Counted from the stretch's first letter, positions 16,799 to 50,398 are shown. The stretch is DNA of 64,000 bases from a bacterium BMS3Bbin08 (GCA_002897775.1 BDTR01000030.1:128070-192069); one strand, 5' to 3'. Notes: generated by a model not told the origin, from the letters alone. Translations and numbers: made by a program.

Positions 16799-16910
16799 TT
16801 TAGTGGTTGCCCTTCGGGCCATGTACCGTTCTGGTGCACGGCGGGCAAGCACAATGTAAGGATCTATTCATCATAACATTCGCTCACTAACCACTCGCTG
16901 TGCATTCATA
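16799..16910 (+). repeat. dispersed ~110-nt intergenic repeat, copy A
   Basis: Shares conserved blocks with copies at 38005-38130 and 50286-50398: TTAGTGGTyGCCC, CGGCGGGyAAGCACAATGTA, ATTCGCTCAC and CATTCAT. Begins with a GCCC-TTCG-GGC tetraloop hairpin. Confidence 0.7.
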
Positions 16911-16991
16911 GATTTGAGAAACTCCCATAATTCCATAATAGATTGATTGTTCCTTTACAATTCTCTATTCCCGATTCACTGTTCACGGTAG

Positions 16992-18521
16992 TTAAAGCAT
17001 TTCCAGGGTCTTTATAAGCGCTTCTGCTTTTTTCAGGGTCTCGCCATATTCCTTTTTCGGATCAGAATCCGCCACGATCCCGGCCCCGGCCTGCACATAG
17101 GCAATACCGTTTTTAATGACAAAGGTCCTGATGATGATATTCATGTCCATTGAACCGGTAAGGCTGATGTAACCCAGAGAGCCGGTGTACGGCCCCCTTG
17201 TTACAGTTTCAAGTTCATCGATTATTTCCATGCACCGCACCTTGGGAACCCCTGTTATTGTGCCGCCCGGGAAGGTCGCCCTTATGGCGTCAAAGCAGTC
17301 CTTGCCCTTTGCCGCTGTGCCTTTAATATTCGATACAATATGGATGACATGGGAATAGTCCTCGGTTATCATTAGTTCATCAACTGTTACAGAGCCGTAA
17401 TCAGAGATCTTTCCCAGGTCGTTGCGCTCCAGGTCTATTAACATGAGGTGTTCCGCGCGTTCCTTTTCATTTATCAGGAGGTCTGCTCTCATCTTCCGGT
17501 CTGCTTTGGCATTTCTTCCTCTTGGCCTGGTTCCTGCGATCGGACGTGTCTCCACCGTGTTACCGCTGAATTTTACCAGGCGTTCCGGAGAAGAGCTTAC
17601 TATCTGATAATCTCCCATATCAAGATACACTGCGAACGGTGAGGGGTTTATCCTGCTCAGCGTTTTGTATATATCCCACGGACCTGTGCGGCTGATATCA
17701 GCTGATACCCTTTGAGAGAGATTTGCCTGAAAGATATCCCCTGCCTTTATATAGTCTTTTGCTCTTTTTACCATTTCGATGTAATCATTTTCACCTGTCG
17801 CATGCTGTATCCTGATCCGCTTTTCAGGTTTTCCTGAACTTTTCAGATCAGCATTGTTTTTTGAAGATATCTTTTTATAAAGGCTGTTGATCTTGTCGCA
17901 TGCGGACTCGTAATAAGTCCCGGGATCGCGGTCAACCGGTCCAAAGGAAAAGCCCGTCTCTTCCGCGGCGGAACAGGAAATAATAAAGGTTTTTTTGGAT
18001 TTATGGTCAAAGGCGGCAACAGTATCGACCAGCAGGAAATGCGCGTCAGGTATTCGGAGGTCGTCTGTTGTTGTCCTCGGGAGCCGTTCGAAATAATGGA
18101 CAAAATCATAACTGAACATGCCGACAGCCCCGCCCACAAAAGGAGGAAAGTTCCCCGGGAAACCGTTGGCTCCAGAGGTAACCCCGATCTTGTACTGGCC
18201 GAGCATTTCTTTCAATTTTTTCAGGGGCGTCCCTGAAGTCGATACTGCTGGATTCCGGGTCACGACCCTTTTCCCCCTGAATTCTGTTTCAACAGAGCCG
18301 TTCTTTACCTTAAACACCAAAAAGGGGTCTGTTCCTGCGAATGAATACCGGGCTATCTTCTCAGGGCCTTTTATGCTTTCAAACAGGAAACTGTAAGGGC
18401 CTTTGATGGATTCATAAGCCTGCCGGGGTGAAATGAAAGGCAGTTCAGCGTAAACAGGGGATATCCGCCCTTTCTTAACGTTTTCTATGAAATTTTCTCT
18501 GGAAGGAAAAATGTTAAGCAT
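16992..18521 (-). CDS. chorismate-binding enzyme, anthranilate synthase / aminodeoxychorismate synthase component I family
   Basis: 509 aa. C-terminal chorismate-binding signature (GGTITGVPKVRCMEIIDELE...RGPYTGSLGYIS). No adjacent glutamine amidotransferase subunit. Confidence 0.8.
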   Translation of the reverse strand: MLNIFPSRENFIENVKKGRISPVYAELPFISPRQAYESIKGPYSFLFESIKGPEKIARYSFAGTDPFLVFKVKNGSVETEFRGKRVVTRNPAVSTSGTPLKKLKEMLGQYKIGVTSGANGFPGNFPPFVGGAVGMFSYDFVHYFERLPRTTTDDLRIPDAHFLLVDTVAAFDHKSKKTFIISCSAAEETGFSFGPVDRDPGTYYESACDKINSLYKKISSKNNADLKSSGKPEKRIRIQHATGENDYIEMVKRAKDYIKAGDIFQANLSQRVSADISRTGPWDIYKTLSRINPSPFAVYLDMGDYQIVSSSPERLVKFSGNTVETRPIAGTRPRGRNAKADRKMRADLLINEKERAEHLMLIDLERNDLGKISDYGSVTVDELMITEDYSHVIHIVSNIKGTAAKGKDCFDAIRATFPGGTITGVPKVRCMEIIDELETVTRGPYTGSLGYISLTGSMDMNIIIRTFVIKNGIAYVQAGAGIVADSDPKKEYGETLKKAEALIKTLEML

Positions 18522-18532
18522 CAGATCAATAA

Positions 18533-18633
18533 GTAGCGAGCCCCGTTAGATTCTGCACCCACAGTTTTGCTCACACAAAACTGGACGCGGGCGCTATAAC
18601 AAGAATCTGGACAACGGGGCAGGTAGCTAGTGG
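18533..18633 (+). repeat. intergenic repeat: GTAGCGA heptads plus a GCCCCG...AGATTCT/GAATCTGG...CGGGG hairpin (second family)
   Basis: Related copies at 51382-51437 (compact), 38942-39004 (partial) and 37628-37665 (heptads only). Confidence 0.55.
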
Positions 18634-18654
18634 CCCTGTAACGCCCGCCAGGGC

Positions 18655-19377: not shown

Positions 19378-19382
19378 GGTTT

Positions 19383-19937: not shown

Positions 19938-20100
19938 AATTTTCTCTTGTTAATTAAGATAAAAGTGCGGTCTTTGAAAGGTTAACATAAAGGTTTATTC
20001 CTTTACAACAACATGCCTGCCCCCCCTGTCTGAATTTGATAGCTTCTTTCCGGTCTAACTAAACAGAGGTTTAAAGGGCGCAAAAAGGTCGCAGAAACGA

Positions 20101-20142
20101 TGAAATTTTACGCGCATAGTCTTGAAGGAAAGCCGCATTGAG
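20101..20142 (+). pseudogene. relic of the cas3 5' end (first ~13 codons)
   Basis: ATGAAATTTTACGCGCATAGTCTTGAAGGAAAGCCGCATTGA translates to MKFYAHSLEGKPH*. It is nearly identical to the start of cas3 at 22315 (MTEYYAHSLEGRPP). Confidence 0.75.
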
Positions 20143-20345
20143 ACAGAATTTACAAAATGCTTGAATATTCTTATCTATAGTGGCAGAATTAGAATTAATT
20201 ATGGCATATTATTTTAAACAGGCAGAGAGGTTGATCTATGATGCCTGAGAATGAGCCTGTCATGGCCATATCTGCAGCATAGTGAGTGCTTTCGAAAGGT
20301 GCGCGCCGGATCGACTGGGAACATTGGGATTAAAGGGGGACGGAA

Positions 20346-20662
20346 TGACGGGTAAAGCATATATTGAAATACCGGAAGAAAAAATAGCCCGGTTCTGCGG
20401 GAAATGGAAGATACGTGAATTCGCGCTCTTCGGTTCTGTCCTGAGGGATGATTTCAGACCTGACAGCGACATTGACGCGCTGGTTACTTTTGATGAGGAT
20501 GCTCAACACTCCCTGTTTGACCTTGTTAATATGGAAGATGAACTCAGGGAGATTTTTGGGCGCAATGTGGACCTGGTAAGCCGCAAAGGCATTGAAGCAA
20601 GCAGAAATTATATACGAAGAAACGCAATATTGAACTCCGCAGAGGCGGTATATGCAGCGTGA
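20346..20662 (+). CDS. nucleotidyltransferase (MNT/MntA-type antitoxin)
   Basis: Polymerase beta-type nucleotidyltransferase motif GS...D.D (FALFGSVLRDDFRPDSDIDALVTF). Overlaps the downstream DUF86 gene. Shine-Dalgarno-like AAGGGGGA lies upstream of the ATG at 20346. Confidence 0.8.
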
Positions 20663-20996
20663 CCGTGAGTTTTTCCTCGACATATTGGAGGCGGCAAAAC
20701 TCGCTGTCTCTTATGTCGGTGAAAAGTCTAAGGAAGATTTTTTAAAAGACCCTCAGTGTCAGGACGCTGTTATCAGACGGCTTGAGATAATAGGTGAAGC
20801 ATCCCGACGGATTTCTGCGGAGACACAGGCGGATTTTCCTGATTTGCCGTGGGGTGAAATGATCGGAATGCGGAATGTGATGATCCATAAGTATGACGAC
20901 GTGGACCCCGGTATAGTCTGGAAGACAGTAAAAAGTAACCTCCCAAAACTTATTACATCATTTAAAACGATACTCGAAGCGCCTGATAAAGAGTAA
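20652..20996 (+). CDS. HepT-like (DUF86, HEPN superfamily) toxin
   Basis: 114 aa with the DUF86 layout (RLEIIGEASRRIS...MRNVMIHKYDDVD). Overlaps the upstream MNT gene by 11 nt. Confidence 0.8.
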   Translation: MQRDREFFLDILEAAKLAVSYVGEKSKEDFLKDPQCQDAVIRRLEIIGEASRRISAETQADFPDLPWGEMIGMRNVMIHKYDDVDPGIVWKTVKSNLPKLITSFKTILEAPDKE

Positions 20997-21112
20997 CCAT
21001 CATTATTGACCACTTATTGTTCTTCCCGTGGAGAACAGGAAAACTTCCGGAGTAATGCACCAAGGAAATTATATAAAAGTCCAAAAGGGTAATAATTGCG
21101 TAAATATTACGC

Positions 21113-21285
21113 GCATAGGCTTGATGAAAAGCCGCCCGATGAATGGCATCTGCTTGTCAAAAACTCGCAGAGAGGAACATTTATTGAATGTAGCAAAACT
21201 GGCGGAAAAATTTACAGATGAATTTGGCTCCGGGGAATGGGCGTATCTGGCGGGGCTGTGGCATAGGCTAAGAAAATTATAATAG
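21113..21285 (+). pseudogene. diverged relic of the cas3 5' end (~55 codons)
   Basis: In-frame similarity to cas3 codons 4-60. YYAHRLDEKPPDEWHLL aligns with YYAHSLEGRPPDEWHLL. KFTDEFGSGEWAYLAGLWHRL aligns with EFANYFGAKTWGELAGANHDL. Confidence 0.7.
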
Positions 21286-21304
21286 AATGTGAAGGAGGAC
21301 AAAT

Positions 21305-22138
21305 TTGGAAACAAGTATAGCAGTTTTTAAGGGTAAGCAGATCAGAAAAACTATTCATAACAACGAATGGTGGTTTTCAATTATCGATGTAATTGAGGTG
21401 CTCACCGGAACTGAGCGACCACGAAAGTACTGGAATGATTTAAAGAAAAAGCTGGCGGATGAAGGATATGACGAGTTGTCCGAAAAAATCGGACAACTGA
21501 AAATACAGTCGGCAGACGGGAAATACTATAAGACAGACTGTTCAAATACAGAGACAATGTTCAGGCTTATCCAGTCCATTCCATCTCCCAAAGCTGAACC
21601 TTTCAAGCGCTGGCTGGCAAAGGTTGGCTACGACCGTGTCCAGGAAATTGAAGACCCTGAACTCGGCACGAAAAGGACAAGGGCTTTATACAAGGCGAAG
21701 GGCTATTCGGACGACTGGATTGAAAAGCGCATGCGCGGTATTGCCATTCGTGAAGAGCTTACAGATGAGTGGAAAAAGAGGGAAGTGAAAGAGAAAAGGG
21801 AATACGAGATTCTCACTGCCGAGATTGCAAAAGCGGCATTCGGCATAACACCCGGCCAACACAAAAAACTTAAGGGACTGAAACGTCAAAACCTTCGTGA
21901 CCACATGAACGATCTCGAGTTAATTTTCTCAATGCTTGGCGAAGCGGCAACAACTGAGATAACGCGTGTTGATGATGCAAAAGGATTTAGTGAAAACAAA
22001 AAGTCAGCCCGTAAGGGTGGCGGCGTTGCAGGTAAGGCTCGGAAAGACCTTGAAAAAAAGACCAGGAAGAAGGTTGTTTCCCGTGAGAACTACCTGACCG
22101 AACCGGAGAGCCGGAAGAAGTTGGCAAGAAAGAAGTAA
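21305..22138 (+). CDS. Bro-N domain protein, DinD-like (DNA-damage-inducible protein D family)
   Basis: N-terminal Bro-N (FKGKQIRKTIHNNEWWFSIIDVIEVL). The central region resembles E. coli DinD (LKGLKRQNLRDHMNDLELIFSMLGEA). Lys/Arg-rich C-terminus. Confidence 0.7.
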   Translation: METSIAVFKGKQIRKTIHNNEWWFSIIDVIEVLTGTERPRKYWNDLKKKLADEGYDELSEKIGQLKIQSADGKYYKTDCSNTETMFRLIQSIPSPKAEPFKRWLAKVGYDRVQEIEDPELGTKRTRALYKAKGYSDDWIEKRMRGIAIREELTDEWKKREVKEKREYEILTAEIAKAAFGITPGQHKKLKGLKRQNLRDHMNDLELIFSMLGEAATTEITRVDDAKGFSENKKSARKGGGVAGKARKDLEKKTRKKVVSRENYLTEPESRKKLARKK

Positions 22139-22156
22139 AAAACGGGAGGGGTTGCA

Positions 22157-22306
22157 ATGGGACATGAAGCAAAGAAAACCGAACATTCCGGCGCCAAGAA
22201 AGGCTCTGGCGCATACTGGGGCAGAAAGGTTGCGGCGAAGAAGGAGTCGAACAGGAAAAGACGGGAGAATGATAAGGGAAGTGTGAGGGAGCAGAAGGAT
22301 CGGTAA
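22157..22306 (+). CDS. small basic hypothetical protein (49 aa)
   Basis: ATG preceded by GGGAGG. Translates to MGHEAKKTEHSGAKKGSGAYWGRKVAAKKESNRKRRENDKGSVREQKDR. Absent from the ORF track because it is under 60 aa. Confidence 0.3.
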   Translation: MGHEAKKTEHSGAKKGSGAYWGRKVAAKKESNRKRRENDKGSVREQKDR

Positions 22307-22314
22307 GGTTCAAG

Positions 22315-24492
22315 ATGACAGAATATTATGCGCATAGTCTTGAAGGAAGGCCGCCGGATGAATGGCATCTCCTGGATGAGCACTTGGAGAATGTTGCAAG
22401 AATGGCCGCTGAATTCGCTAACTATTTTGGCGCCAAAACATGGGGTGAATTAGCGGGGGCAAATCATGACCTTGGCAAAGGCACACGGCCTTGGCAGGCA
22501 TACCTTCGGAAATCAAATGATATTATTGACGAATTTGCCAAGTATTATAAAGGACATCCGAATCATGCTGCTGTAGGTGCGCAATGGCTTAATAACAACT
22601 CAAGGGAAGCTGGAAAATTGTTGGCATACTGTATCGCAGGACACCATGGGGGTCTGCCTAGTTGGAGCGATTCTCCTGTTGCCTCATTGGAGATGAAGCT
22701 TCAACAACCGTTTCCTGAAGTTGCTGTGCCTTGTACAGTCTCGGAATTTCCAACCACCCTGCCTTTTCCCATTGATTCGGATCGTTTTGGGTTTCAGTTG
22801 CAATTTTTTGTTCGAATGCTTTTTTCCTGTCTTGTAGATGCGGATTTTCTTGATACGGAAGCATCTCTGGACAAAAAGAGGTCCGGCTGGCGTTCTACCT
22901 ATCCTGGAATCAGCGAACTTCATGAGAGATTCTGGGCAAATTTCAATGTGTTGCGTGAAGGAGCTGATCAAACCTTAAATGTGAACCGGCAACGGGAACT
23001 GGTTCTTGAAGACTGCTTGCGGGCAGCGGCGTTGGAACCAGGATTGTTTTCACTGACGGTTCCAACCGGCGGCGGTAAGACTCTGGCCTCGCTGGCCTTG
23101 GCACTGAATCATGCGATAAATAAAGAAAAGAGAAGAATTATTTACGTCATTCCTTTTACCAGCATCATTGAGCAGAATGCCAAGGTTTTCCGTGATATGC
23201 TGGGTGAAAATGCTGTTCTGGAACACCATTGCAATTTTCTACCTGACGATTCGAATTGGCAAACCAGGCTTGCAACTGAAAATTGGGACGCCCCTGTAGT
23301 AGTAACGACCAATGTCCAGTTTTTCAATTCTTTTTATGCCAATAAGACATCGAAGTGCCGGAAGCTGCATAATGTGGTTGAGAGTATCATTATCTTTGAT
23401 GAAGTTCAGGCCATACCGGTTGAAAAGTTGAAGCCATGCCTGGAAGTCATCAAGGAGTTGTCACTGAACTATGGTGTTACCTCGATTTTATGCACGGCCA
23501 CGCAACCTGCCATTGAGTTTTCTGACCAATTCACTACCGGACTGCAGAATGTCACGGAAATTATTCAGGATGTCCCATCGCTCTTTACAGCCTTGAAACG
23601 AACGGAGGAGGCTTTTATTGGTGAACTCAGTGAGCAGGATATTGCAGAACGGTTGCTGGAACATGAACAGGTCCTGTGCATCGTGAATACTCGGCAGCAG
23701 GCACTGGATATCTTTAATGCCTTGCCTGAGTCCGATGCAAATTTTCATCTGAGCGCCTTGATGCACCCAGTCCACCGGACGAAAAAATTGAATGAAATCA
23801 GAAACAGATTGTCGCCCGCAAACAAATTGCCGTGTCGGGTGATCAGCACACAGTTGATTGAAGCAGGTGTTGATGTGGATTTTCCCTGTGTATTTCGGGC
23901 AGTTGCCGGAATCGACAGTATTGCCCAGGCTGCAGGGCGATGTAATCGGAACGGCCTGAGCAAGGTACCATGCAAAGTGTATGTGTTTGAGTTTTCGAAA
24001 GATGGTGTTTGCTCTTTCTTTCGTCATGCTGCACAATCAGCCGCGAAGCTCTTTGAACCATTTGCCGGAAAACTTACAGATCCTGAATGTGTCCGTGAGT
24101 ATTTCGCAGATTTTTTTTGGAAAAATGAACAACGAATGGATGAGGACGGTATCATCGAAAATTACTGTCAACCGGCGCAATCAGGTAATATTCAATTTCG
24201 TGACATTGCAGAATTCCAGATGATTAAATCAGCTACCAAGCCAGTAGTCATTGCTTTGGAAGAAAATGCTATCGAACTGGTGAGTTCGCTCGAATTTGCA
24301 GAGCACAAAGGAGGAATTCTTCGGAAGCTCCAGCAGTTCAGTGTTCAAATTTACCCGTATCAATTAGAAGAAATAAAGAATTGGCTGGAAAGTCCGGTGC
24401 CGGGCGTCTGGGTCTTGCGTTCGCAAGAGCTCTACTCCGAGACTACCGGGCTCAGGTGTAAGCCACCTGAAGGACAAGCATTTTTTGGTTAA
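22315..24492 (+). CDS. cas3: CRISPR-associated helicase/nuclease Cas3 (HD domain plus SF2 helicase), type I
   Basis: 725 aa. N-terminal HD nuclease (YAHSL...HDLGK...AGHHGG). DExH helicase motifs (VPTGGGKT, IFDEVQ). Confidence 0.93.
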   Translation: MTEYYAHSLEGRPPDEWHLLDEHLENVARMAAEFANYFGAKTWGELAGANHDLGKGTRPWQAYLRKSNDIIDEFAKYYKGHPNHAAVGAQWLNNNSREAGKLLAYCIAGHHGGLPSWSDSPVASLEMKLQQPFPEVAVPCTVSEFPTTLPFPIDSDRFGFQLQFFVRMLFSCLVDADFLDTEASLDKKRSGWRSTYPGISELHERFWANFNVLREGADQTLNVNRQRELVLEDCLRAAALEPGLFSLTVPTGGGKTLASLALALNHAINKEKRRIIYVIPFTSIIEQNAKVFRDMLGENAVLEHHCNFLPDDSNWQTRLATENWDAPVVVTTNVQFFNSFYANKTSKCRKLHNVVESIIIFDEVQAIPVEKLKPCLEVIKELSLNYGVTSILCTATQPAIEFSDQFTTGLQNVTEIIQDVPSLFTALKRTEEAFIGELSEQDIAERLLEHEQVLCIVNTRQQALDIFNALPESDANFHLSALMHPVHRTKKLNEIRNRLSPANKLPCRVISTQLIEAGVDVDFPCVFRAVAGIDSIAQAAGRCNRNGLSKVPCKVYVFEFSKDGVCSFFRHAAQSAAKLFEPFAGKLTDPECVREYFADFFWKNEQRMDEDGIIENYCQPAQSGNIQFRDIAEFQMIKSATKPVVIALEENAIELVSSLEFAEHKGGILRKLQQFSVQIYPYQLEEIKNWLESPVPGVWVLRSQELYSETTGLRCKPPEGQAFFG

Positions 24493-24495
24493 TAA

Positions 24496-26821
<2,326 letters not shown>

Positions 26822-26822
<1 letters not shown>

Positions 26823-27688
26823 TGAGTGATACGATCAAAAACCGCTATGAGTTTGTCCTGTTGTTTGACGTAAAAAATGGAAATCCGAATGGTGACCCGG
26901 ACGGAGGGAATCTTCCCCGGATCGATCCCGAGACCGGGCATGGAATCACAACGGATGTCTGCCTGAAGCGTAAGATTCGAAATTACGTGGAGTTGGTTAA
27001 GGATAATAAGACACCGTTTAATATTTACGTTAAGGAAAAAGCGATTCTTACAGAACGTCGGCAGCCAGCCTATGAGGCAGTGGCAGACGAAAAAGATAAA
27101 TCTGCAAAAATCAGCAAAGCACGAGCCTGGATGTGCAAAAACTTTTTCGATGTTCGGACTTTCGGCGCTGTCATGTCGGTAAAAGAAAACAACTGCGGCC
27201 AAGTGCGAGGTCCGGTGCAGTTTGCCTTTTCGCAAAGTATCGATCCAGTCGTCCCACTGGAAGCAAGTATTACCCGAATGGCTGTAGAGACCAAAAAGGA
27301 ATCATACGCCCAGGATGGAGACAACCGGACCATGGGCCGGAAGACTTATATCCCCTACGGCCTGTATCGTGTTCACGGTTTTATCTCAGCACCACTTGCC
27401 AAACAGACCGGTTTCTCCGAAGAGGACCTTGAATTGTTCTGGAATTCCCTGCAAAACATGTTCGATCACGACCGGTCCGCGGCCCGTGGCGAAATGGCGG
27501 CTAGGAATTTGATCGTCTTCAAGCACGACAGCGAACTTGGCAACGTCCCGGCCCATAAGCTCTTTGATTTAGTAAAAGTATCGCGTTCAAATGACAGCAA
27601 CGGGCCTGCACGGGTATTTTCAGACTATGAGGTGAAAGTTGACAGCGCAAATGTTCCGGGAGGCGTAACTCTAGAGGAGAAGTTTTGA
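26822..27688 (+). CDS. cas7: Cas7c (Csd2) backbone subunit, type I-C
   Basis: [27 protein letters not shown] is the Csd2/DevR family N-terminus. Confidence 0.9.
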
Positions 27689-28258
27689 ATGACTGAAAAG
27701 AAACAATCACCCCAACTAATCCCCCCGCACGGCGGTTACCAGGAACTCCAGTCCTACAAGATGTCGGAGATCGTGTATGACGCTACAGTAGTATTCTGCA
27801 ACCGCTTCATCAACATCCGCTCCCGCACTCATGACCAGATGGTGCAGGCGGCGCGAAGCGGGAAGCAGAATATCGCTGAGGGCAGCATGGCATCGGGCAC
27901 TTCAAAGAAGTTCGAGCTTAAGCTCGTCAGTGTGGCGCGGGCAAGCCTTGAAGAAGTGCTTCTGGATTTTAAGGACTATCTGAGGCAGAAGGGGCTTGTG
28001 CTTTGGACAAAGGATCATCCAAAGGCCGGTGAAGTGAGAAAACTCTGCTATCAAAAGAATAGGTCTTATACGACTTATAAGACCTATCTTGAGCAGTCGC
28101 CACCGGAGGTGGCGGCCAATACCATGATCTGTCTGATTCACCAGACAAACTATCTGCTGGACAAGCAGTTAAGGGCCCTTGAACAAGCCTTTCTGAAAGA
28201 AGGCGGCTTTACTGAAAGACTCTACCATGCGCGATCAGGGTCGCGCAAAAAGAAATAG
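27689..28258 (+). CDS. four-helix-bundle protein (23S rRNA intervening-sequence / Avd-like family) with a ~70-aa C-terminal extension, embedded in the cas operon
   Basis: LQSYKMSEIVYDATVVF...QMVQAARSGKQNIAEGSMASGTSKKFELKLVSVARASLEEV matches the family pattern (Y.L...NIAEG.....KEF......A.GSL.E). Its start overlaps the cas7 stop (TGAATG). cas4 starts 9 nt after its stop. Confidence 0.65.
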   Translation: MTEKKQSPQLIPPHGGYQELQSYKMSEIVYDATVVFCNRFINIRSRTHDQMVQAARSGKQNIAEGSMASGTSKKFELKLVSVARASLEEVLLDFKDYLRQKGLVLWTKDHPKAGEVRKLCYQKNRSYTTYKTYLEQSPPEVAANTMICLIHQTNYLLDKQLRALEQAFLKEGGFTERLYHARSGSRKKK

Positions 28259-28266
28259 GTCATATA

Positions 28267-28940
28267 TGAGTTATAAGCCCTATAAAGAAGATGATCTTGT
28301 TCAGCTTTCAGCCTTACAGCATTTTGCTTTCTGTGAGCGGCAGTGCGCGCTGATTCACATTGAACAGATATGGAGCGAGAATATGTTCACTGCTGAAGGA
28401 AAGATCATGCATGAAAGGGTGGATACTTCAAAGTCTGAATCACGGGGAGCAGTCCGCATGGAATTCAGTGTGCCTTTGCGTTCACTCAGACTCGGACTGA
28501 CCGGCAAGGCTGATGTTGTTGAATATCACAGGCAGGATGATGGGACATGGTTGCCCTTCCCCGTGGAATACAAACGCGGTAAACCAAAGGCGGATGATTG
28601 CGACAAGGTCCAGCTCTGCGCGCAGGCAATGTGCCTTGAAGAGATGATGAGTGTTGAAATACCGAAAGGAGCTTTGTTTTACGGTCGGATCAGGCGGAGA
28701 GAAGATGTGATCTTTGACAATGCATTACGAAAGGAAACAGAAAATACTGCGAAAAAGGTTCACGAGCTTATTGAATCACAAAAAACTCCTGGACCTGAAT
28801 ATTCAAAAAGATGCAAATCCTGTTCATTGTTTCAGCAGTGCATGCCTGAGCTGTGCTCGAAAAAGAATAAAGCAAGCAGATATCTGTCAAATATTTTAAA
28901 ACAACTGGATGCTGAGGTCTCGAATAATGGGACAGGCTGA
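28267..28940 (+). CDS. cas4: Cas4 (RecB-like nuclease with a 4-Cys cluster)
   Basis: MSYKPYKEDDLVQLSALQHFAFCERQCALIH begins with a Cys. C-terminal cysteines CKSCSLFQQC. Canonical position before cas1. Confidence 0.88.
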
Positions 28941-28962
28941 GTCAGGCGTGACAGGTTAAATC

Positions 28963-29994
28963 ATGAAAAAACATCTTAACACATTATTCGTCACCACCCA
29001 GGGGGCATATCTTTCCAAGGATGGGGAAACCGTGTCAGTTAAGGTTGATGATGAAATCCGCTTGCGTATTCCAATTCACACAATTGGCGGTATTGTATGT
29101 TTCGGTCAGGTAAGCTGCAGTCCTTTTTTAATGGGGTTTTGCGCTAAAAATAACGTTGCTGTATCATTCCTGACTGAATACGGACGCTTTCTGGCAAAGG
29201 TTCAGGGGCCGGTATCCGGGAATGTGCTGTTACGAAGGGAACAATACCGGCTTGCTGATGATGAGACTGTTTCTTTAAATATTTCCAAATCAGTTATTAC
29301 AGGCAAACTTGTTAATACCAGAACAGTATTGCAGAGGTTTTTGAGAGACCACGCCGATAAACCAAATGCAGATGCAGTGAAACAGGCGTCAAAACTTATA
29401 AGCTCAACATTAAGACGGGTATATAACGAAACCTCGCTTGACGTGATAAGAGGATTTGAAGGAGATTCGGCTCGTATCTATTTCAGTGTTTTCGATAATC
29501 TTATCACTGCCAGTAAGAAAGAATTCTTTTTCAGGGAACGTAACAGGAGGCCTCCTTTGGATAGGGTGAACTGTCTGTTGTCATTTCTGTATACGATTGT
29601 AATGCATGATGTACGCTCTGCGCTTGAGACAGCAGGGCTTGATCCGGCGGTAGGGTTCCTCCACAAAGACCGGCCGGGCAGGTATGGACTCGCGCTGGAT
29701 ATGATGGAGGAATTCAGGCCGTTTCTTGCTGACAGGCTGGTTCTTTCTCTGATAAATCTCAGTCAGGTCAATGCAAAGGGATTTGAAGAAAAAGAAAATG
29801 AAGCTGTGCTAATGGATGATGATACAAGAAAGGCTGTCCTTGTTGCATATCAGAACCGGAAACAGGATGAGATTATGCATCCATTTCTTAATGAAAAAGT
29901 GACGATTGGATTGCTTTTTCATACGCAGGCATTATTGCTTGCAAGATATTTGCGCGGCGATTTGGATGCTTATCCGCCCTTTATCTGGAAGTGA
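28963..29994 (+). CDS. cas1: Cas1 integrase, type I-C
   Basis: 343 aa with the typical Cas1 sequence. Confidence 0.92.
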   Translation: MKKHLNTLFVTTQGAYLSKDGETVSVKVDDEIRLRIPIHTIGGIVCFGQVSCSPFLMGFCAKNNVAVSFLTEYGRFLAKVQGPVSGNVLLRREQYRLADDETVSLNISKSVITGKLVNTRTVLQRFLRDHADKPNADAVKQASKLISSTLRRVYNETSLDVIRGFEGDSARIYFSVFDNLITASKKEFFFRERNRRPPLDRVNCLLSFLYTIVMHDVRSALETAGLDPAVGFLHKDRPGRYGLALDMMEEFRPFLADRLVLSLINLSQVNAKGFEEKENEAVLMDDDTRKAVLVAYQNRKQDEIMHPFLNEKVTIGLLFHTQALLLARYLRGDLDAYPPFIWK

Positions 29995-30003
29995 GGATGA
30001 AAT

Positions 30004-30291
30004 ATGTTTGTTATAGTGAGCTATGATGTTTCAACTGAAGACGGCGGACAGCGGCGCCTGAGAAGGGTCGCCAGGGCATGTCAGGATTATGGACAGAGAG
30101 TTCAGTATTCTATTTTTGAATGTATGATTAATCCGGCGCAATGGACTTTTTTAAAAGAACGATTGATCAGTGAAATTGATCCTGAAAAAGACAGTCTGAG
30201 ATTTTATTACCTCGGCTCTAACTGGAAGCGCCGCGTGGAACATGTAGGGGTCCGGAAATCGCCTGATCAGGACGGTCCGTTGATCGTGTAA
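30004..30291 (+). CDS. cas2: Cas2
   Basis: 95 aa (MFVIVSYDVSTEDGGQRRLRRVARACQDYGQRVQYSIFEC). Confidence 0.92.
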   Translation: MFVIVSYDVSTEDGGQRRLRRVARACQDYGQRVQYSIFECMINPAQWTFLKERLISEIDPEKDSLRFYYLGSNWKRRVEHVGVRKSPDQDGPLIV

Positions 30292-30474
30292 GAAGGAGTG
30301 CGAACCGTAAGTTCACATTAAGTTGCCGTAAGGTTCGCACAGGGGAAAACTGCTTATTATTCTTAATGTTAGCAGTTATGTTCTTTGACAATTGAAAGTC
30401 AGTTGCTCTTGAAAGAGGGGCTTCGCAAAAATTGTCTTTTAAGGGCAGTAAAAACAACAACTTATAAAGTAAGA

Positions 30475-31536
30475 GTCGCCCCCCATGCGGGGGCGTGGAT
30501 TGAAACCATATTAATTTGTATGGGCACGCCTGAAGGTTCGTCGCCCCCCATGCGGGGGCGTGGATTGAAACTTGCTAATACACTTTCATTTGAGATAGCG
30601 CATGGTGTCGCCCCCCATGCGGGGGCGTGGATTGAAACGCTTACCATCAATACAAACTGCTGAATATGCGTGTCGCCCCCCATGCGGGGGCGTGGATTGA
30701 AACTAGATAATCGCTGTTGGATACGCCAAGCAGTAAGTCGCCCCCCATGCGGGGGCGTGGATTGAAACTTGATAGCACTGATGGAGATACAGAAGAAACT
30801 GCGTCGCCCCCCATGCGGGGGCGTGGATTGAAACCTGTTAATATTGCAGGGATGGGTCAAATAGAAGTGGTCGCCCCCCATGCGGGGGCGTGGATTGAAA
30901 CTTAAAGAAAGTAACATATTCAAAAGAAAAAACAAGTCGCCCCCCATGCGGGGGCGTGGATTGAAACTAAAGTGTTCACGGCGTTGGCTTCACTGGACAC
31001 TAGTCGCCCCCCATGCGGGGGCGTGGATTGAAACAAATTAGTTTAACTAATGGAGGTGGCGGCATGGAAGTCGCCCCCCATGCGGGGGCGTGGATTGAAA
31101 CCCCGATTCAGGCAGAGGATTTTATCTTCGAGGCCGTCGCCCCCCATGCGGGGGCGTGGATTGAAACTATCTTCTTAGGATCATAGGTAACGCTTACACG
31201 TGTCGCCCCCCATGCGGGGGCGTGGATTGAAACAGTTTTGGGTTTTATAATTATTGATTCCATAGTCGTCGCCCCCCATGCGGGGGCGTGGATTGAAACT
31301 TGATAGCCATAGGTTTTTCGCACAATAAATAATGTCGCCCCCCATGCGGGGGCGTGGATTGAAACTGTCAATAATGTAACCAGCAATATCGGAGGTAACA
31401 TGTCGCCCCCCATGCGGGGGCGTGGATTGAAACGGCGCAAAGCTGTTCTATGTATACGACAGGACGTTGTCGCCCCCCATGCGGGGGCGTGCCTGTCTGC
31501 CGGTCTACGACTCGTATAGTAGGCAGGGATTGAAAC
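30475..31536 (+). CRISPR. CRISPR array: 16 repeats of the type I-C 32-bp repeat GTCGCCCCCCATGCGGGGGCGTGGATTGAAAC and 15 spacers of 33-35 bp. The last repeat carries a 36-bp insertion. A ~180-bp AT-rich leader lies between cas2 and repeat 1.
   Basis: Repeat starts at 30475, 30540, 30607, 30672, 30737, 30803, 30870, 30936, 31003, 31070, 31136, 31202, 31268, 31334, 31403 and 31469. Repeat 16 is split as GTCGCCCCCCATGCGGGGGCGTG, then 36 bp, then GATTGAAAC. Confidence 0.97.
31492..31527. mobile_element. 36-bp palindromic insertion (CCTGTCTGCCGGTCTACGACTCGTATAGTAGGCAGG) inside CRISPR repeat 16, between GCGTG and GATTGAAAC
   Basis: The repeat is otherwise intact on both sides. The termini CCTGyCTGCC/GGCAGG are inverted. 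The same left junction recurs at 35094. Confidence 0.7.
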
Positions 31537-31601: not shown

Positions 31602-31922
31602 ATGATGAATAAAATCGACCTGGAAATCGTTGAAAGATTTAGAGAGCTTGTATCACAGAAAGTAAAAGTACATGAACTCAGAGTGTTCGGCTCCCGCGCC
31701 AGAGGTGACGCTACTGCAGAGTCGGACCTTGATGTACTAATTGTTGTAGAACATCTTGACCATTCCATTGAAAGATATATAAGCGATTGCGCGTGGGAAG
31801 CAGGCTTCCCTGCTGATGTTGTAGTTGTTCCGATCCCCATAAGTATCGATGCTATCAAGAACAGCCCAATACGCGAATCCATCTTCATCAAGAATGTCTA
31901 TAATGAGGGAATTGCTGTATGA
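31602..31922 (+). CDS. minimal nucleotidyltransferase (MNT) of a HEPN/MNT toxin-antitoxin pair
   Basis: VFGSRARGDATAESDLDVLIVVE is the polymerase beta-type nucleotidyltransferase motif. Overlaps the HEPN gene by 4 nt. Confidence 0.8.
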   Translation: MMNKIDLEIVERFRELVSQKVKVHELRVFGSRARGDATAESDLDVLIVVEHLDHSIERYISDCAWEAGFPADVVVVPIPISIDAIKNSPIRESIFIKNVYNEGIAV

Positions 31923-34890: not shown

Positions 34891-34899
34891 AACAATAAA

Positions 34900-35060: not shown

Positions 35061-35070
35061 AATAGATTTA

Positions 35071-35093
35071 GTTGCCCCCCATGCGGGGGCGTG
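35071..35093 (+). repeat. CRISPR repeat 5' portion (GTTGCCCCCCATGCGGGGGCGTG) joined directly to CCTGCCTGCCAGTCTACGACT...
   Basis: 23 of 23 positions match the repeat with one mismatch. It breaks at the same position as repeat 16, and the adjoining sequence matches the left end of the 36-bp insertion. Confidence 0.75.
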
Positions 35094-35316
35094 CCTGCCT
35101 GCCAGTCTACGACTGAGAAAAATCCCGCCTTCAGAAGATAATGCTGTGAGATCGATAAATAAAGCTGAACACTGGTTAAAAACAAAGCAATGGTGCCGGT
35201 AACTGATGTGGACTACTGACACATATAAAAGAGAGGGTATTTGTTAATTTTGACAAACTATAATAATTAAGTTATACTTTAATTAAGAAGTAAAACAAAT
35301 TTATGGAGGTAAAACT

Positions 35317-35604
35317 ATGCCTACAGTAACTGTATCATCAAAAGGGCAGATTGTCATGCCAAAAAAGATACGGGATGCCCTTGGCATAAAGCCGAAACAG
35401 AAGGTATTTTTGAAAGTTGTACAAGATCATGCTGAAATTATACCGCTGCCGGAAAATCCTGCTCAGGCATTCTGCGGTATTTTCAAAAAAGGTTCATCAC
35501 TGACAAAATCACTGCTGAAGGATCGAAAGGAGGAAGCAAAACTTGAAGAGAAAAATATTGCTCGATTCTTACGCGCTTCTGGCATATCTAAAAAAAGAAG
35601 ATAA
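35317..35604 (+). CDS. vapB: AbrB/MazE/SpoVT-family antitoxin (VapB-like)
   Basis: MPTVTVSSKGQIVMPKKIRDALGIKPKQKVFL is the swapped-hairpin AbrB-type DNA-binding domain. Lies upstream of the PIN gene and overlaps it in another frame. Confidence 0.7.
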   Translation: MPTVTVSSKGQIVMPKKIRDALGIKPKQKVFLKVVQDHAEIIPLPENPAQAFCGIFKKGSSLTKSLLKDRKEEAKLEEKNIARFLRASGISKKRR

Positions 35605-35944
35605 CTACAGGAAAGTGATGGAATTATTAAATTCGGCGCCTGAAGATTGTTCTATTATAATGAATGAAATCAATGCGGGAGAAAGTTACTATATTATTGC
35701 CAGAGAAAGAGGAATCAGGCAAGCCGATTATTTCATTGAAACCATTCTTCCTAACCTTCCTATAGACATTATATCCAATTCATTCGACCAGATCATAGAT
35801 GCTTCCAGAATCAAAGTTGACCATTCCATTTCTTATGCTGACTGTTTTGTTGTCGCTACAGCCGTCCGTGAAAAAGCCGTGATTGTTACAGGCGATCCTG
35901 ATTTTAAGCGAGTTAAAGATATTGTGGATGTAGAATGGATATAG
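35543..35944 (+). CDS. vapC: PIN-domain ribonuclease toxin (VapC-like)
   Basis: KILLDSYALLAY near the N-terminus carries the first acidic PIN residue. CFVVATAVREKAVIVTGDPDF carries the later one. The start assignment is uncertain; this one overlaps vapB by about 60 nt. Confidence 0.7.
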   Translation: MKRKILLDSYALLAYLKKEDNYRKVMELLNSAPEDCSIIMNEINAGESYYIIARERGIRQADYFIETILPNLPIDIISNSFDQIIDASRIKVDHSISYADCFVVATAVREKAVIVTGDPDFKRVKDIVDVEWI

Positions 35945-35979: not shown

Positions 35980-36019
35980 TGCCCCCCCCATGCGGTGGCG
36001 TGCCTGCGGGGATTGAAAC
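35980..36019 (+). repeat. degenerate CRISPR repeat carrying an 8-bp insertion (CCTGCGGG) at the same GCGTG^GATTGAAAC position
   Basis: GCCCCCCCCATGCGGTGGCGTG-cctgcggg-GATTGAAAC. This is either a degenerate terminal repeat or a footprint of the palindromic element. Confidence 0.6.
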
Positions 36020-36136
36020 TGCTTTATTTCAGTGCCTTCAGTGTTCTCAGTGGTTGTATGAGAGAATATTCAATTACCCAGGACTGAAGCTGCTCTATTG
36101 ACTACTCCATTTATTCGGAGGTATACTTAAAAATAT

Positions 36137-36250
36137 CCTGGGGGAGGCGCAGACCTGTGGAACTACGGGTCAGGCCTGAGAGTTTTCCCGAATATTCGGG
36201 GAGAGACCCCTTGAACCTGAACTGGGTAATACCAGCGGAGGAAAAGGAGG
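36137..36250 (+). ncRNA. TPP (THI-box) riboswitch
   Basis: Conserved CTGAGA (36176-36181) and ...GACCCCTTGAACCTGAACTGGGTAATACCAGCGGAGGAA fit the THI element consensus. Located upstream of the thiamine operon. Confidence 0.8.
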
Positions 36251-36265
36251 AATAAAAAAATTATA

Positions 36266-37624: not shown

Positions 37625-37798
37625 CGAATAGCTCGTAGCTCATAGTTCATAGCTGATAGTACAGACCACAGACTATTCCGTAACGTCCCGACGCTTCGGG
37701 ACAAACAGTTTAAGCCCCTGTACCACAAGGGTGCATGGCAGGCGTTCAAAACGGATAACGAATAACGATTAACAAATAACGTATAACGGTTTTTTTAG

Positions 37799-37999: not shown

Positions 38000-38004
38000 T
38001 AAAT

Positions 38005-38130
38005 TTAGTGGTCGCCCTTCGGGCAAGCCCTCCAAAATAACCGGCGGGCAAGCACAATGTAATGATTTTCTTATTAACATATTCGCTCACTACGCCTGCC
38101 TGCCGGCAGGCAGATTCACTGAGCATTCAT
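38005..38130 (+). repeat. dispersed ~110-nt intergenic repeat, copy B (includes the CTGCCTGCCGGCAGGCAG palindrome)
   Basis: Same conserved blocks as copies A and C. The UUCG-tetraloop hairpin GCCCTTCGGGC is present. Confidence 0.7.
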
Positions 38131-44166: not shown

Positions 44167-44191
44167 TATCTTGAATAAACGGGTGTTTTGC

Positions 44192-46382: not shown

Positions 46383-46461
46383 AGACCGTTAATCGTTGAT
46401 CTGTTAATTGTTAACCGGATAACTAATAACGAATAACCAATAACTGAAGCGGCAAAGCCGC

Positions 46462-47775: not shown

Positions 47776-48047
47776 TGTAGAAATGCAAATTTTTATTTGC
47801 GGGAATGTATATTTAAGGAAAATTTACTTTAGAAAAAACTTTTTTTATTTTTTTCTGGAGGTTCTGCCTTCCAAAATAAAAAGGGATTTACGAGGATGCT
47901 TTCTGAATGCCCCGTCTTTGGCGGGGATGAAAGCAAGCTATCTTAATAAATTTTTTTTATTCCTTACCCGGAAGTCCCGACTTTAGTCAGGGAACTTCAA
48001 AAGAAGAACTATACTAATAATATCACAATACTAAAATAGTCCGGTGT

Positions 48048-50267
48048 TTGTCAATAGCAAAATGGCAGGCCCTTTATTATTGGAGATTTCTGGTAAAATC
48101 TGGCATATTACAGGGGTCTCCGCAGCGGCTTCCGATGATCTCAGGGAGTTTTAACAATATAAAAATGAAACAGCAATTTGAGAGGATCATCAGATATATA
48201 GCAGACCCCGGCAAAGGTGCCGGATCAGGCCTGAAGATAAATATCAGGGAACAGTTCCAGCCTGATGAACAGGACAGCCATTCTGTAGCAAGGAACCTTA
48301 ACGCCGCTTTCCTGATAGCCTTATCAGGGGAATCACATTATTTGTATGATAAGGCACTGGGATATCTGAACGGACATGAGGGCCATACTTCATGGGGCAG
48401 GACAGCAGGATTTTATAAGGACGGACTCAGGCTCGTACTTTCAGAGATATCAGGCAGATGTTCTGCTGATGAGGACCTCAAAAAAGGCCTGACAGATCTT
48501 TATTCATGGATCAGAGGCCAGGAGGCCGGTCACAACCCTGAAAAGACGGTTGAAATGTTCCATCAGGTCTTCTTTCCAGAGGGGGTATCTTTACTGGACG
48601 AGCAAAACAGGAAAGAAAAGATCAACTCCCTCAGAGAACAAAGAAAGATCAGGATCTCGAAGCTGAACCCCTCACCAATCAATGATCCGGCCAAAGAGGT
48701 CCTGTTTACGTCAAATATACTTGTTACAGTTCCTCCGGCGTCAGATGATATCCAGGGTCTTTCTGTAAGCGGCCATCTCAAGCAGATGCTAAAAGATATA
48801 AGCCGGGAAGATCAGGCCTTTTGGTATGACCATCCCATACCCATCGGGGTCTCACCCTGGCATAATGAGGCCTTATACGGCCTTGAAGGTCTGGACGAGG
48901 CGGTGTCGTTTGAAAAGCAGAGGGGAACGCTTGACAGTGATAGCAGGCTCACATGTGTTCTTTCAGCCTCTGCGACCCATAAGGGACTCCAGGGGATAGT
49001 AAAGGAGTATCTTGAGGACGAGTTCAAAAAAGAAAAGAACATCCGCCATCTTGATGTCTATGTTTTTACTGAGGCCGACACCCTGGAACTTGTGAACGAG
49101 ATCCTTATTCCGGCGGCTGAAACGTATCTTGGCGCCGGAGAACACGGCATACTTTATGAAATTGTAGGTGTTGACGGAGAGTATGGCAGGCATTATAGTT
49201 TTCTAAGGGCTGTATCAGCGTTCTGGCAGGTCCTTATCGCTCCTGAGATCAAAGGAACCTTTAAGATCGATCTTGACCAGGTCTTTCCCCAAAAAGAGCT
49301 CCGGGAGCAGACAGGTATGTCAGCGTTCGGGCATTTTAAGACGCCTCTGTGGGGCGCGGAAGGTATCGATATCCGGGACAACAAGGTGGAGCTCGGTATG
49401 ATCGCAGGCGCGCTTGTGAACCAGGAGGATATTGATAAATCCCTGTTCTATCCTGATGTCCGTTTCCCTGACAGGGGAATTAACGCGGATGAATTTGTGT
49501 TTTTCAGCACGCTTCCACAGGCCCTGTCCACAGAAGCGGAGATGATGACGCGTTACACGGATAATATGTTTGACGGTAAAAAGCAGTGTATCCAGCGTAT
49601 GCATGTTACAGGCGGGACCAGCGGCATACTTGTGGACTCGTTAAGGAAATATCATCCCTTTACACCGACTTTCATAGGCCGGGCGGAAGACCAGGCATAT
49701 ATAATGTCCGTACTGTTCACTGACCCGCAAAAAAATTTACGCTATGTACATAAAGACGGCCTGATAATGAGGCATGACAAAGAGGCCTTTGCAAAAGAGG
49801 CGATAAAAATGGCCGCAGCCGGAAAACTTACCGGAGATTACATACGGATCCTCATTTTTTCATATTATGTAAATGCCCTGCCCTGGCCGTTCGAGGACAT
49901 CAAGAAAACAATTGGCCCGTTCACAGGCTGTTTTGTATCAAAGATCCCGCTTACAGTTGTATATTTAAGGTTTGCACTGAAAATAGCCTCTTTTTTTGAT
50001 AATGAAACACAGGAACACAGAAGCCAGGGCTTTGAACTTCTGAAAACAGGCAGTAAACGCCTGCATGAAACCATTAAAAAACTGGTTGAAGCCCCGGACC
50101 TTTTGAATGAGCAGTTTCATAAAGAGAAAAAGGGGTGGAAGCTTTTTTATGATATACTGGATACCGTGGAGAAAAAACTTGGACAGAATGATAAGTTCGC
50201 GCTTGATCTGAAGAAAAAAGCAGAAGCACTGGTTAGAGGATGCAGGATAAATTTTGAAGTAAAGTGA
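48048..50267 (+). CDS. large hypothetical protein (about 700-739 aa; start may be the internal Met at 48166)
   Basis: Long ORF with no recognisable motifs. Confidence 0.55.
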   Translation: MSIAKWQALYYWRFLVKSGILQGSPQRLPMISGSFNNIKMKQQFERIIRYIADPGKGAGSGLKINIREQFQPDEQDSHSVARNLNAAFLIALSGESHYLYDKALGYLNGHEGHTSWGRTAGFYKDGLRLVLSEISGRCSADEDLKKGLTDLYSWIRGQEAGHNPEKTVEMFHQVFFPEGVSLLDEQNRKEKINSLREQRKIRISKLNPSPINDPAKEVLFTSNILVTVPPASDDIQGLSVSGHLKQMLKDISREDQAFWYDHPIPIGVSPWHNEALYGLEGLDEAVSFEKQRGTLDSDSRLTCVLSASATHKGLQGIVKEYLEDEFKKEKNIRHLDVYVFTEADTLELVNEILIPAAETYLGAGEHGILYEIVGVDGEYGRHYSFLRAVSAFWQVLIAPEIKGTFKIDLDQVFPQKELREQTGMSAFGHFKTPLWGAEGIDIRDNKVELGMIAGALVNQEDIDKSLFYPDVRFPDRGINADEFVFFSTLPQALSTEAEMMTRYTDNMFDGKKQCIQRMHVTGGTSGILVDSLRKYHPFTPTFIGRAEDQAYIMSVLFTDPQKNLRYVHKDGLIMRHDKEAFAKEAIKMAAAGKLTGDYIRILIFSYYVNALPWPFEDIKKTIGPFTGCFVSKIPLTVVYLRFALKIASFFDNETQEHRSQGFELLKTGSKRLHETIKKLVEAPDLLNEQFHKEKKGWKLFYDILDTVEKKLGQNDKFALDLKKKAEALVRGCRINFEVK

Positions 50268-50285
50268 GTTTTTTTCAATTGACAA

Positions 50286-50398
50286 TTAGTGGTCACCCGC
50301 CAAAAATATCGGCGGGTAAGCACAATGTATGGAATTGATATTATTACATTTGCTCACGAACACCTGCCTTTGGCAGGCTACGCTCGCTGTACATTCAT
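50286..50398 (+). repeat. dispersed ~110-nt intergenic repeat, copy C
   Basis: TTAGTGGTCACCCGCC...CGGCGGGTAAGCACAATGTA...TTTGCTCAC...CCTGCCTTTGGCAGG...CATTCAT. Confidence 0.7.

Follow-up and report, generated by a model that had tools for sequence, protein, structure and literature searches.

Short intergenic repeats of Thermodesulfovibrionia form a dispersed family that may best be read as BOX/BIME-like

The window analysed here, a 64,000-nt stretch from bacterium BMS3Bbin08 (GCA_002897775.1, BDTR01000030.1:128070-192069), carries a short intergenic repeat in three copies, c1, c2, and c3, which were delimited by sequence reading and alignment. All three lie on the plus strand, as a sequence-only reading of this DNA had reported, and the 20-mer CGGCGGGYAAGCACAATGTA matched the window exactly three times even when up to three mismatches were allowed, against 0.00 matches expected from 100 shuffles. 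Covariance modelling, which that reading had proposed, bore the family out: a model built from foreign copies only recovered c1 (67.7 bits, E = 2e-14), c3 (E = 1e-8), and c2 (E = 8e-8), and it showed no other match in the window, in agreement with nhmmer. The copies and their parts are listed below; L numbers denote loci outside the window, with positions after the colon.

16765..16790, plus strand: terminator-like hairpin and T-run of the upstream gene; c1 starts directly after the T-run.
16799..16909, plus strand: c1, 111 nt; an additional GUACC/GGUGC hairpin makes the hairpin-1 region larger; the nested palindrome is absent.
16809..16846, plus strand: hairpin-1 region of c1; outer GCCC...GGGC stem around GCCC-UUC-GGGC and an inserted GUACC-GUUCU-GGUGC hairpin (fold and model alignment).
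16847..16862, plus strand: best-conserved core block by column conservation, AAGCACAATGTAAGGA in c1.
38004..38130, plus strand: c2, 127 nt, in the spacer between the thiS and thiG cistrons; its hairpin-1 region has two hairpins, and it also carries a nested palindrome.
38014..38049, plus strand: hairpin-1 region of c2; GCCC-UUC-GGGC (38014-38024), then GCCCUCC-N9-GGCGGGC (38027-38049).
38050-38065 (..TAATGA) and 50318-50333 (..TATGGA), plus strand: counterparts of the c1 core block in c2 and c3.
38095..38113, plus strand: nested palindrome in c2, CCTGCCTGCCGGCAGGCAG, inserted between ...CACTACG and the 3' tail.
50276..50287 and 50399-50410, plus strand: flanks of c3, CAATTGACAATT on the left and CAATTAACAATT directly after c3, to be compared with the empty L026 site TTAATTGACAATT^TACAATCGA.
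50285..50398, plus strand: c3, 114 nt, between a 739-aa open reading frame (ORF) and an RF-1-domain (ArfB-like) gene; hairpin-1 is extended, and a short palindrome is nested in the copy.
50295..50317, plus strand: hairpin-1 of c3, ACCCGCC-AAAAAUAUC-GGCGGGU, 7 bp; closing pair A-U, where c1 and c2 have G-C.
50363..50377, plus strand: nested short palindrome in c3, CCTGCCTTTGGCAGG; its position equals that in c2.

The blocks that the sequence-only reading had assigned to all three copies were shared in part. CGGCGGGYAAGCACAATGTA and CATTCAT are common to c1, c2, and c3, whereas TTAGTGGTyGCCC and ATTCGCTCAC are present in c1 and c2 and altered in c3, where their counterparts are TTAGTGGTCACCC and ATTTGCTCAC; the consensus forms TTAGTGGTY(G/A)CCC and ATT(C/T)GCTCAC cover all three. 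The hairpin reported as a UUCG tetraloop or its GC equivalent is more aptly written GCCC-UUC-GGGC, with a stem of 4 bp around a loop of 3 nt, and in c3 its place is taken by ACCCGCC-N9-GGCGGGT. The second hairpin, CCTGCC...GGCAGG, was confirmed in c2 and c3 but is missing from c1. The two-hairpin layout of c2 is also found in L023:3331-3401.

The copies had been described as starting a few nucleotides past a stop codon, which is correct for c2 (4 nt after the thiS stop codons) but not for c3, which starts 17-18 nt past the stop at 50265-50267, or for c1, which starts 25 nt past a stop and behind the terminator-like hairpin. A thiamine pyrophosphate (TPP) riboswitch at 36130-36261 (61.7 bits) lies ahead of a radical-SAM thiH-like gene, thiS, c2, thiG, thiE, and thiC; since c2 is inside this riboswitch-controlled thi operon, it must be transcribed through. 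No sigma-70-type promoter or intrinsic terminator was detected inside or at c1-c3, the sole terminator-like site being that of the gene upstream of c1. A 3'-UTR (3' untranslated region) stabiliser, one of the roles suggested earlier, suits c1 poorly, given its position behind the terminator-like hairpin. A stand-alone small-RNA gene is unlikely, as the copies have neither promoter nor terminator, decay, and occupy polymorphic sites. When the copies were compared by eye with consensus sequences, none of sigma-54 promoter, DnaA box, dif site, or attC core fitted.

The repeat family proved to be larger than three copies. Exact-pattern scans for AAGCACAATGTA-N12-30-TTYGCTCAC, one over species-representative genomes and one over metagenomes, gave true homologues at L006-L010, L012-L014, L019-L021, L023, and L024, of which the named records are all Nitrospirota metagenome-assembled genomes; the remaining matches were chance matches within genes. 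Covariance model R1 found 25 units in the loci first collected; the loci added later contributed two more clear units, both of them in L090. Pattern scans, nhmmer, and the covariance model together gave about 25 further units, spread over at least eight other Nitrospirota/Thermodesulfovibrionia contigs. Homologues of ThiG and of the RF-1 protein place the window itself in Thermodesulfovibrionia, and its own strain is present in hydrothermal/marine metagenome assemblies. There were no units in the viral contigs, phage records, or plasmids of the collections scanned, and about 10 kb past each end of the window added neither units nor a transposase.

A known RNA family does not explain the repeat. 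At gathering thresholds, Rfam 15 reported only tRNA and the TPP riboswitch in the window, neither overlapping the copies, and only tRNA in eleven loci with units or arrays; a permissive search (E<=10) of the L013 array, the L014 array, and c2 returned noise only. No paper on repeats of Thermodesulfovibrionia turned up in a literature search. The family is previously undescribed, and true homologues were found solely in Thermodesulfovibrionia/Nitrospirota contigs.

The core unit is about 80 nt long and reads TTTAGTGG-TC-ACCC-TTC-GGGT-AAGCAC-AATGTAAGGA-(~15 AU-rich nt)-ATTCGCTCAC-(6-8 nt)-CTCGCT-NNN-CATT. Its 5' end is TT(T/A)A(G/A), followed by a short GC hairpin whose stem is subfamily-specific and then by (A)AGCAC-AATGTAAGGA. 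The greater length of the window copies, 111-127 nt, is due to additional hairpins in the hairpin region and, in c2 and c3, to the palindrome nested before the CTCGCT tail. At least three subtypes have one common 3' half. Subtype 1 is the main type. Subtype 2, TT(A/G)AT(G/C)TTCC-CTGC-GGAA-ACCTAATGTAAGGA, is present in L010, L023, L024, and L090. The leader-like subtype 3, TTAAAGCTCCCTGCAG[hairpin]CAGGGAACCTGCC[hairpin]GGCAGG..., heads arrays in L013 and L023, and L014 has it at the array head (3912-4060) as a truncated fragment only and as a solitary unit at 4777-4911. The strongest conservation is of primary sequence (AATGTAAGGA, GGGYAAGCAC, and ATTCGCTCAC), and AATGTAAGGA is near-invariant across all subfamilies. 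The 3' part, ATTCGCTCAC-N-CTCGCT-NNN-CATT, contains a direct repeat of GCTCRC and not a hairpin. In the main subfamily GTGG stands directly 5' of the hairpin (GTGG-TC-ACCC-TTC-GGGT), the stem of which is only 4 bp; other subfamilies have no GTGG (ATGT-TCC.., AAG-CTCC..). Peptide coding was rejected, for the short frame x-S-L-T-x-x-S-L-x-I-stop seen in some units is broken by 1-nt length differences in L007 and L009.

Three helices were proposed for the unit: P0 (TTTAGTG/CACTAAA), P1 (the GC hairpin), and P2 (AATGTAA/TTACATT). In the model-fitted alignment 85.3% of cells pair, compared with 81.3% in column shuffles and 27-44% with slid partners. Of the three, P1 alone looks convincing. Its closing pair varies (AU:11, GC:4, CG:2), and its stem is wholly exchanged between subtypes (ACCC/GGGU, GCCC/GGGC, UUCC/GGAA, UUUUC/GAAAA, and GCUCC/GGAGC). 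P2 showed one-sided transitions only (G-C to G-U, U-A to U-G), and P0 has its outer positions unpaired in many units and is cut to 2 bp in the second subtype. Compensatory changes, which the sequence-only reading had asked after, are thus present in one hairpin, as a single base pair in the main subfamily and a full stem swap between subfamilies, while the other helices are weakly supported. A three-way-junction RNA or ribozyme was rejected on the state of P0, its closing helix. Wobble pairs failed to assign a functional strand: 85.3% of cells pair on the plus strand and 84.5% on the minus strand, with 24 G-U cells against 21 A-C cells, and therefore which strand folds, if either, is not indicated.

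It is possible, though we think it unlikely, that the unit is a functional structured RNA module in which the hairpin accompanies an exposed invariant AAUGUAAGGA, and which works in cis or trans as a stabiliser or processing site in intercistronic spacers and 3'-UTRs. Within that same small probability falls a variant in which the unit is a binding site for an RNA-binding protein, with a CsrA-type A(N)GGA motif, which AAUGUAAGGA resembles, on the 5' side of an AU-rich loop, and the arrays are multivalent sponges. Such readings gain from hairpin-1 being kept through complete stem swaps, from the near-invariance of AAUGUAAGGA, from a GGA kept in about 22 of 25 units, from unit identity (75-95%) that equals or exceeds that of coding DNA (~75%), from the transcription of c2 within its operon, and from changes in the P2 3' strand that mostly yield G-U or U-G on the plus strand. 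They lose by the weak support for P0 and P2 and the lack of a strand signal, by the position of c1 behind a terminator-like hairpin, by the missing promoter and terminator, by the decay of copies and their replacement at the thiS-thiG spacer in relatives, by the missing GGA of c2, by the mixed orientation of units relative to genes, with opposite units in L090, and by the presence of many dispersed loci in place of one or two regulated genes.

The units were also compared with sponge RNAs of the CsrB/RsmZ type. They resemble these as repeated hairpin units, each with one AAGGA on the 5' side of the loop proposed for P2, and in forming arrays of up to about eight units. They differ in being spread over dozens of loci where the sponges are one or two regulated genes, in having no promoter or terminator, in that GGA is missing from some units including c2, and in that the pairing which would put GGA in a loop, P2, is weakly supported, with one-sided changes only. 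We know of no CsrB-like protein sponge in the phylum Nitrospirota. In a bolder form, which we consider improbable, the units would be functional RNA or single-strand DNA modules under purifying selection, the hairpin presenting AAUGUAAGGA to a conserved partner and the arrays serving as multivalent platforms, for example a CsrB-like sponge. If this were true, purifying selection would account for a unit identity of 75-95% between genomes of ~75% coding identity.

The neighbours of the units are unrelated housekeeping genes (glyQ, pheS, trpS, panB, gcvH, thiS/thiG, and folK/galT). In the loci with gene tables, no transposase, integrase, or cas-like gene was consistently near them. The placement immediately 3' of genes, which the sequence-only reading had taken as a property of the family, proved not to be general: of about 15 sites with a callable upstream neighbour, about nine units are co-oriented with it and six are not. 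In L019 and L024 the unit directly adjoins the ribosome-binding site of a divergently oriented gene, in L023 and at L025:3971 it is antisense to both neighbours, and the two units of L090, 210 nt apart, have opposite orientations. Aminoacyl-tRNA synthetase genes lie next to three arrays, at L014:3912-4060 (glyQ), L020:8023-8146 (pheS), and L010:1-190 (trpS), which is above expectation for about 17 loci and may be chance. A T-box leader was considered and rejected, as there was no T-box match at the gathering threshold or at E<=10 and the L010 array is convergent with trpS.

The ends of the unit were compared. No terminal inverted repeats were found, as the ends TTTAGTGGTC... and ...CGCTGTTCATT are not inverted complements; the sole inverted 7-mer, TTTAGTG/CACTAAA, is internal and lost in other subfamilies. 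Of 11 units that are solitary or stand first in an array, 10 have ...AT as their left flank; all units terminate in CATT, with (T/C)A next. The unit is thus bounded by a short direct repeat, ATT(T/C)A, and its exact boundary is ambiguous. The AAATT duplication at c2 is consistent with the empty L029 spacer, GTAATT^TGTAATT. At c3 the flank repeat may be a target duplication, but this is suggestive and not proof, since L026 natively carries ATTGACAATT twice.

Without terminal inverted repeats, the unit is not a classical miniature inverted-repeat transposable element (MITE), another of the earlier suggestions. It resembles MITEs of the Correia/NEMIS and RUP kinds in its length of about 100 nt, its lack of coding capacity, its insertion polymorphism between genomes, and the possible target duplication at c3 and c2; it departs from them in its ends and apparently in flank duplications of no fixed length (4, 5, and 11-12 bp). 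To our knowledge, no full-length insertion sequence (IS) is related to the family.

The missing inverted ends would suit a single-strand DNA element moved by an HUH/Y1 enzyme, either an IS200/IS605-derived palindrome-associated transposable element (PATE) or a REP-like (repetitive extragenic palindromic) RAYT substrate, and we rate this origin as improbable too. The 5' hairpin and the ..AT|T flank would be the recognition and cleavage signals, and insertion 3' of a short target mimicked by the CATT end would give arrays. This origin agrees with the position of the hairpin, 9-10 nt inside the 5' end and behind GTGG in the main subfamily, with the ..AT left flank and the CATT end, and with the exact head-to-tail junctions; PATEs likewise have a subterminal hairpin and a conserved short 5' flank. 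However, the unit has a single hairpin where PATEs have matching left- and right-end hairpins, and its 3' end has none except where it hosts the unrelated palindrome; the stem is short, at 4-7 bp; and the gene-tabled loci contain no TnpA or RAYT gene. Y1 transposition makes no target duplication, which sits poorly with the apparent 11-12 bp duplication around c3. The opposite orientations 210 nt apart in L090 are likewise at odds with strict strand bias.

Most loci carry single units. Head-to-tail arrays with the exact junction ...CGCTGTTCA|TTTAGTGG were found in L009, L010, L013 (about eight units), L014, L020, and L023. In L013 a two-unit block of 162 nt is repeated 2.2 times at 98% identity (A-B-A-B), which we read as a recent block duplication. 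Arrays in which a conserved 37-nt 5' part alternates with a more variable internal segment invite comparison with guide-RNA-type arrays, CRISPR-like or TIGR-like, of repeats and variable guides. That explanation is essentially refuted: the internal segment is AU-rich, resembles that of other units, and pairs in part with the conserved AATGTAA; the L013 array is a duplication; no cas or tas-like gene lies beside any array, the neighbours being glyQ, pheS, trpS, panB, and gcvH; and solitary units prevail.

The sites of the units are polymorphic. The c3 spacer is empty, at 50 nt, in the syntenic L026, and the c1 spacer is empty, at 36 nt, in the syntenic L025. L025 in turn carries a unit (L025:3971) between chorismate-binding and OMP-decarboxylase genes, of which the window counterpart, 18522-18654, has none. 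The thiS-thiG spacer, which holds c2 in the window, holds a different fragment lacking the 5' part in L025 and L028 and nothing in L029. These syntenic relatives are only ~75% identical to the window in coding DNA, and the polymorphism demonstrates a non-ancestral placement without demonstrating recent activity. Truncated, internally deleted, or expanded units are common (L023, L024, L013, and L025). A retroposed, SINE-like (short interspersed nuclear element) origin was suggested by the variable flank duplications and 5'-truncated copies, but it was rejected on the 3'-truncated unit L023:3331-3414 and had no other support. No strain-level polymorphism of c3 was seen: all eight assemblies with the identical RF-1 protein are one strain with 0 differences.

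We favour, with confidence a little better than even, the reading that these units are a lineage-specific, non-coding, BOX/BIME-like interspersed repeat of Thermodesulfovibrionia (Nitrospirota) that is passively co-transcribed with its neighbours (BIME, bacterial interspersed mosaic element). The class is assigned because the units are intergenic and non-coding, have no transcription signals of their own, occupy non-orthologous sites, form head-to-tail arrays, decay, take up nested palindromes, and are restricted to one lineage. By architecture the closest known system is the pneumococcal BOX, followed by BIME/REP clusters. BOX elements (boxA-boxB(n)-boxC) are intergenic, modular, and hairpin-containing, lie near housekeeping genes, have no transposase of their own, and are co-transcribed with their neighbours. 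The family is like them in being non-coding, intergenic, and modular with a head-to-tail internal module, in its stable hairpins, in its dispersal near housekeeping genes, in lacking a transposase of its own, and in its presumed co-transcription with neighbours. It is unlike them in sequence, in which there is no similarity, in phylum, and in its ~80-nt unit; moreover, a leader-like subtype (TTAAAGCTCCCTGC...) heads some arrays (L013, L023, and L014), and no fixed boxC-like terminal module was seen.

With REP/BIME and REPIN-RAYT systems the family shares an extragenic, sometimes clustered location, a hairpin, and, in the main subfamily, the GTGG 5' of the hairpin, and the nested CCTGCC...GGCAGG palindrome itself behaves in a REP-like manner. 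It differs in that the unit as a whole is not palindromic, the hairpin has 4-7 bp, and the gene-tabled loci have no RAYT gene; and all arrays are head-to-tail direct repeats, not the alternating inverted pairs of BIMEs.

For the BOX/BIME-like repeat we propose the following course of spread. Copies would be made in trans by a DNA-level function that recognises the hairpin and the conserved core. To judge from flanks and junctions, a unit would be placed preferentially at AT-rich ...AT|T... sites, and its CATT end would recreate such a site and so favour head-to-tail arrays. Arrays would then grow by unequal recombination, as seen in L013. The units would be passively co-transcribed with their neighbours, the observed case being c2 within its operon, and their hairpins may affect mRNA decay.

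Several observations weigh against this interpretation. Mobility is deduced solely from site polymorphism between genomes that are ~75% identical, from which the timing of gain and loss cannot be deduced. No mobilising enzyme or autonomous partner was found in the gene-tabled loci or in the window with ~10 kb on each side, and the ~84 kb of the source genome that were inspected contain three copies. The flank duplications differ in length (GATT at c1, AAATT at c2, and 11-12 bp at c3), although all end in ATT. Units of different genomes are 75-95% identical, at or above the level of neighbouring genes (~75% coding), and c1-c3 are mutually 75-83% identical, no closer than to foreign copies (c2 and the L019 unit share 91%). 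Such identity looks more like sequence constraint than like a selfish burst of recent date, and a functional RNA or a protein-binding site would be compatible with it too. The constraint could serve recognition by a copying enzyme, or an RNA- or protein-binding role.

With CCTGCCTGCCGG(C/T)AGGCAGG as its sequence, the CCTGCC...GGCAGG hairpin forms a perfect palindrome of 20 nt. It is nested at one fixed unit position in c2, c3, L010, L019, L024, and L025:3971 and absent from short units. This fixed position in one subfamily is a shared derived character, which shows that new units arose from existing ones. The palindrome also stands alone in the window at 7263-7282, and it is found at L008:5617-5636 and L024:5423-5442. 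Among viral contigs of IMG/VR it occurs at 54 sites in 47 stretches (L038-L084) of very different GC content, where about 1-2 would be expected by chance, and no repeat unit was found in any of these 47 stretches. Its flanks are often duplicated (14 bp in L047, 8 bp in L041, and 7 bp in L060) or lie in tracts of 7-8-nt tandem repeats, and ARAGORN predicts, in L068, a tRNA-Met of 92 nt whose variable-arm position is taken by the palindrome. No paper containing the palindrome string turned up in a literature search. We regard the palindrome as an independent mini-element, a module separate from the repeat unit. A 36-nt long form, CCTG(C/T)CTGCCGGTCTACGACTCGTA(G/T)AG(C/T)AGGCAGG, occurs inside a CRISPR repeat of the window (31492-31527) and at L014:9624-9659. 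The repeat family had been tentatively related to the element that targets the CRISPR repeats; the nested palindrome is indeed shared, but it is the sole link, and the palindrome occurs independently of the unit.

The CRISPR array of the window (30473-31536) has about 16 repeats of GTCGCCCCCCATGCGGGGGCGTGGATTGAAAC, type I-C-like, the last of which is split by the 36-nt palindrome. Degenerate CRISPR repeats lie 3.6 and 4.5 kb downstream of the array, at 35069-35093 and 35980-36019; a 5' fragment of the long palindrome comes after the first, and the second has only a short insert, CCTGCGG. Between the array and these repeats are an NTase/HEPN pair (31602-32314), two HsdM N-terminal fragments (32404 and 34900), and a toxin-antitoxin-like pair (35317-35944). 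This layout suggests rearrangement at the array end. A comparison of the window at 34891-35179 and 36010-36092 with L025:6594-7952 showed non-coding DNA 86-95% identical and genes only ~75%; this island, near the degenerate repeats and beside the NTase/HEPN pair, is conserved or recently exchanged. ORFs upstream of the array, at ~20100-30300 (725, 213, 560, 288, 189, 237, 343, and 95 aa), form a candidate type I-C cas operon, judged from ORF sizes only, and match in order and size the expected cas3, cas5, cas8c, cas7, cas4, cas1, cas2. A direct repeat of 34-69 nt lies at 20103, 21102, and 22321.

Other repeats were seen in and near the window and in related loci. Intergenic heptamer-repeat tracts of the AACGAAT / TAACGAA type lie in the window at 37750-37787 and 46414-46437 and in L014 at ~4545-4575; short tandem-repeat tracts like these often host the 20-nt palindrome in viral contigs. 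Just past the right end of the window, L088:3350-4260 contains tRNA-Ser(TGA) at 3497-3584 on the minus strand, extra partial copies of its 3' half, and a segment of ~300 nt repeated twice, and it resembles a tRNA gene duplicated by an inserted element. Downstream of thiC, a conserved hairpin module, ..CCCCACCG(C/T)TTTGCTTCGCAAATCGAAGCAGTGGGGGTC.., accompanies units in two genomes (L028:13200-13340 and L090:300-400), which suggests further repeat families in the same spacers.

The family is the first interspersed repeat family described for Thermodesulfovibrionia, a poorly studied and mostly uncultured group, and comes with a usable consensus and covariance model. These should aid annotation by guarding against a misreading of the arrays as CRISPR-like ones or as small-RNA genes, and the units may serve as strain-typing markers and as flags of assembly breakpoints. 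The family can also serve to test how repeats that lack inverted ends disperse and build up head-to-tail arrays. Of greater interest, perhaps, is the 20-nt palindrome, found as an interruption in a CRISPR repeat and in a tRNA of a phage. If the unusually high conservation of the units across genomes reflects function, it would hint at a new RNA-protein interaction module.

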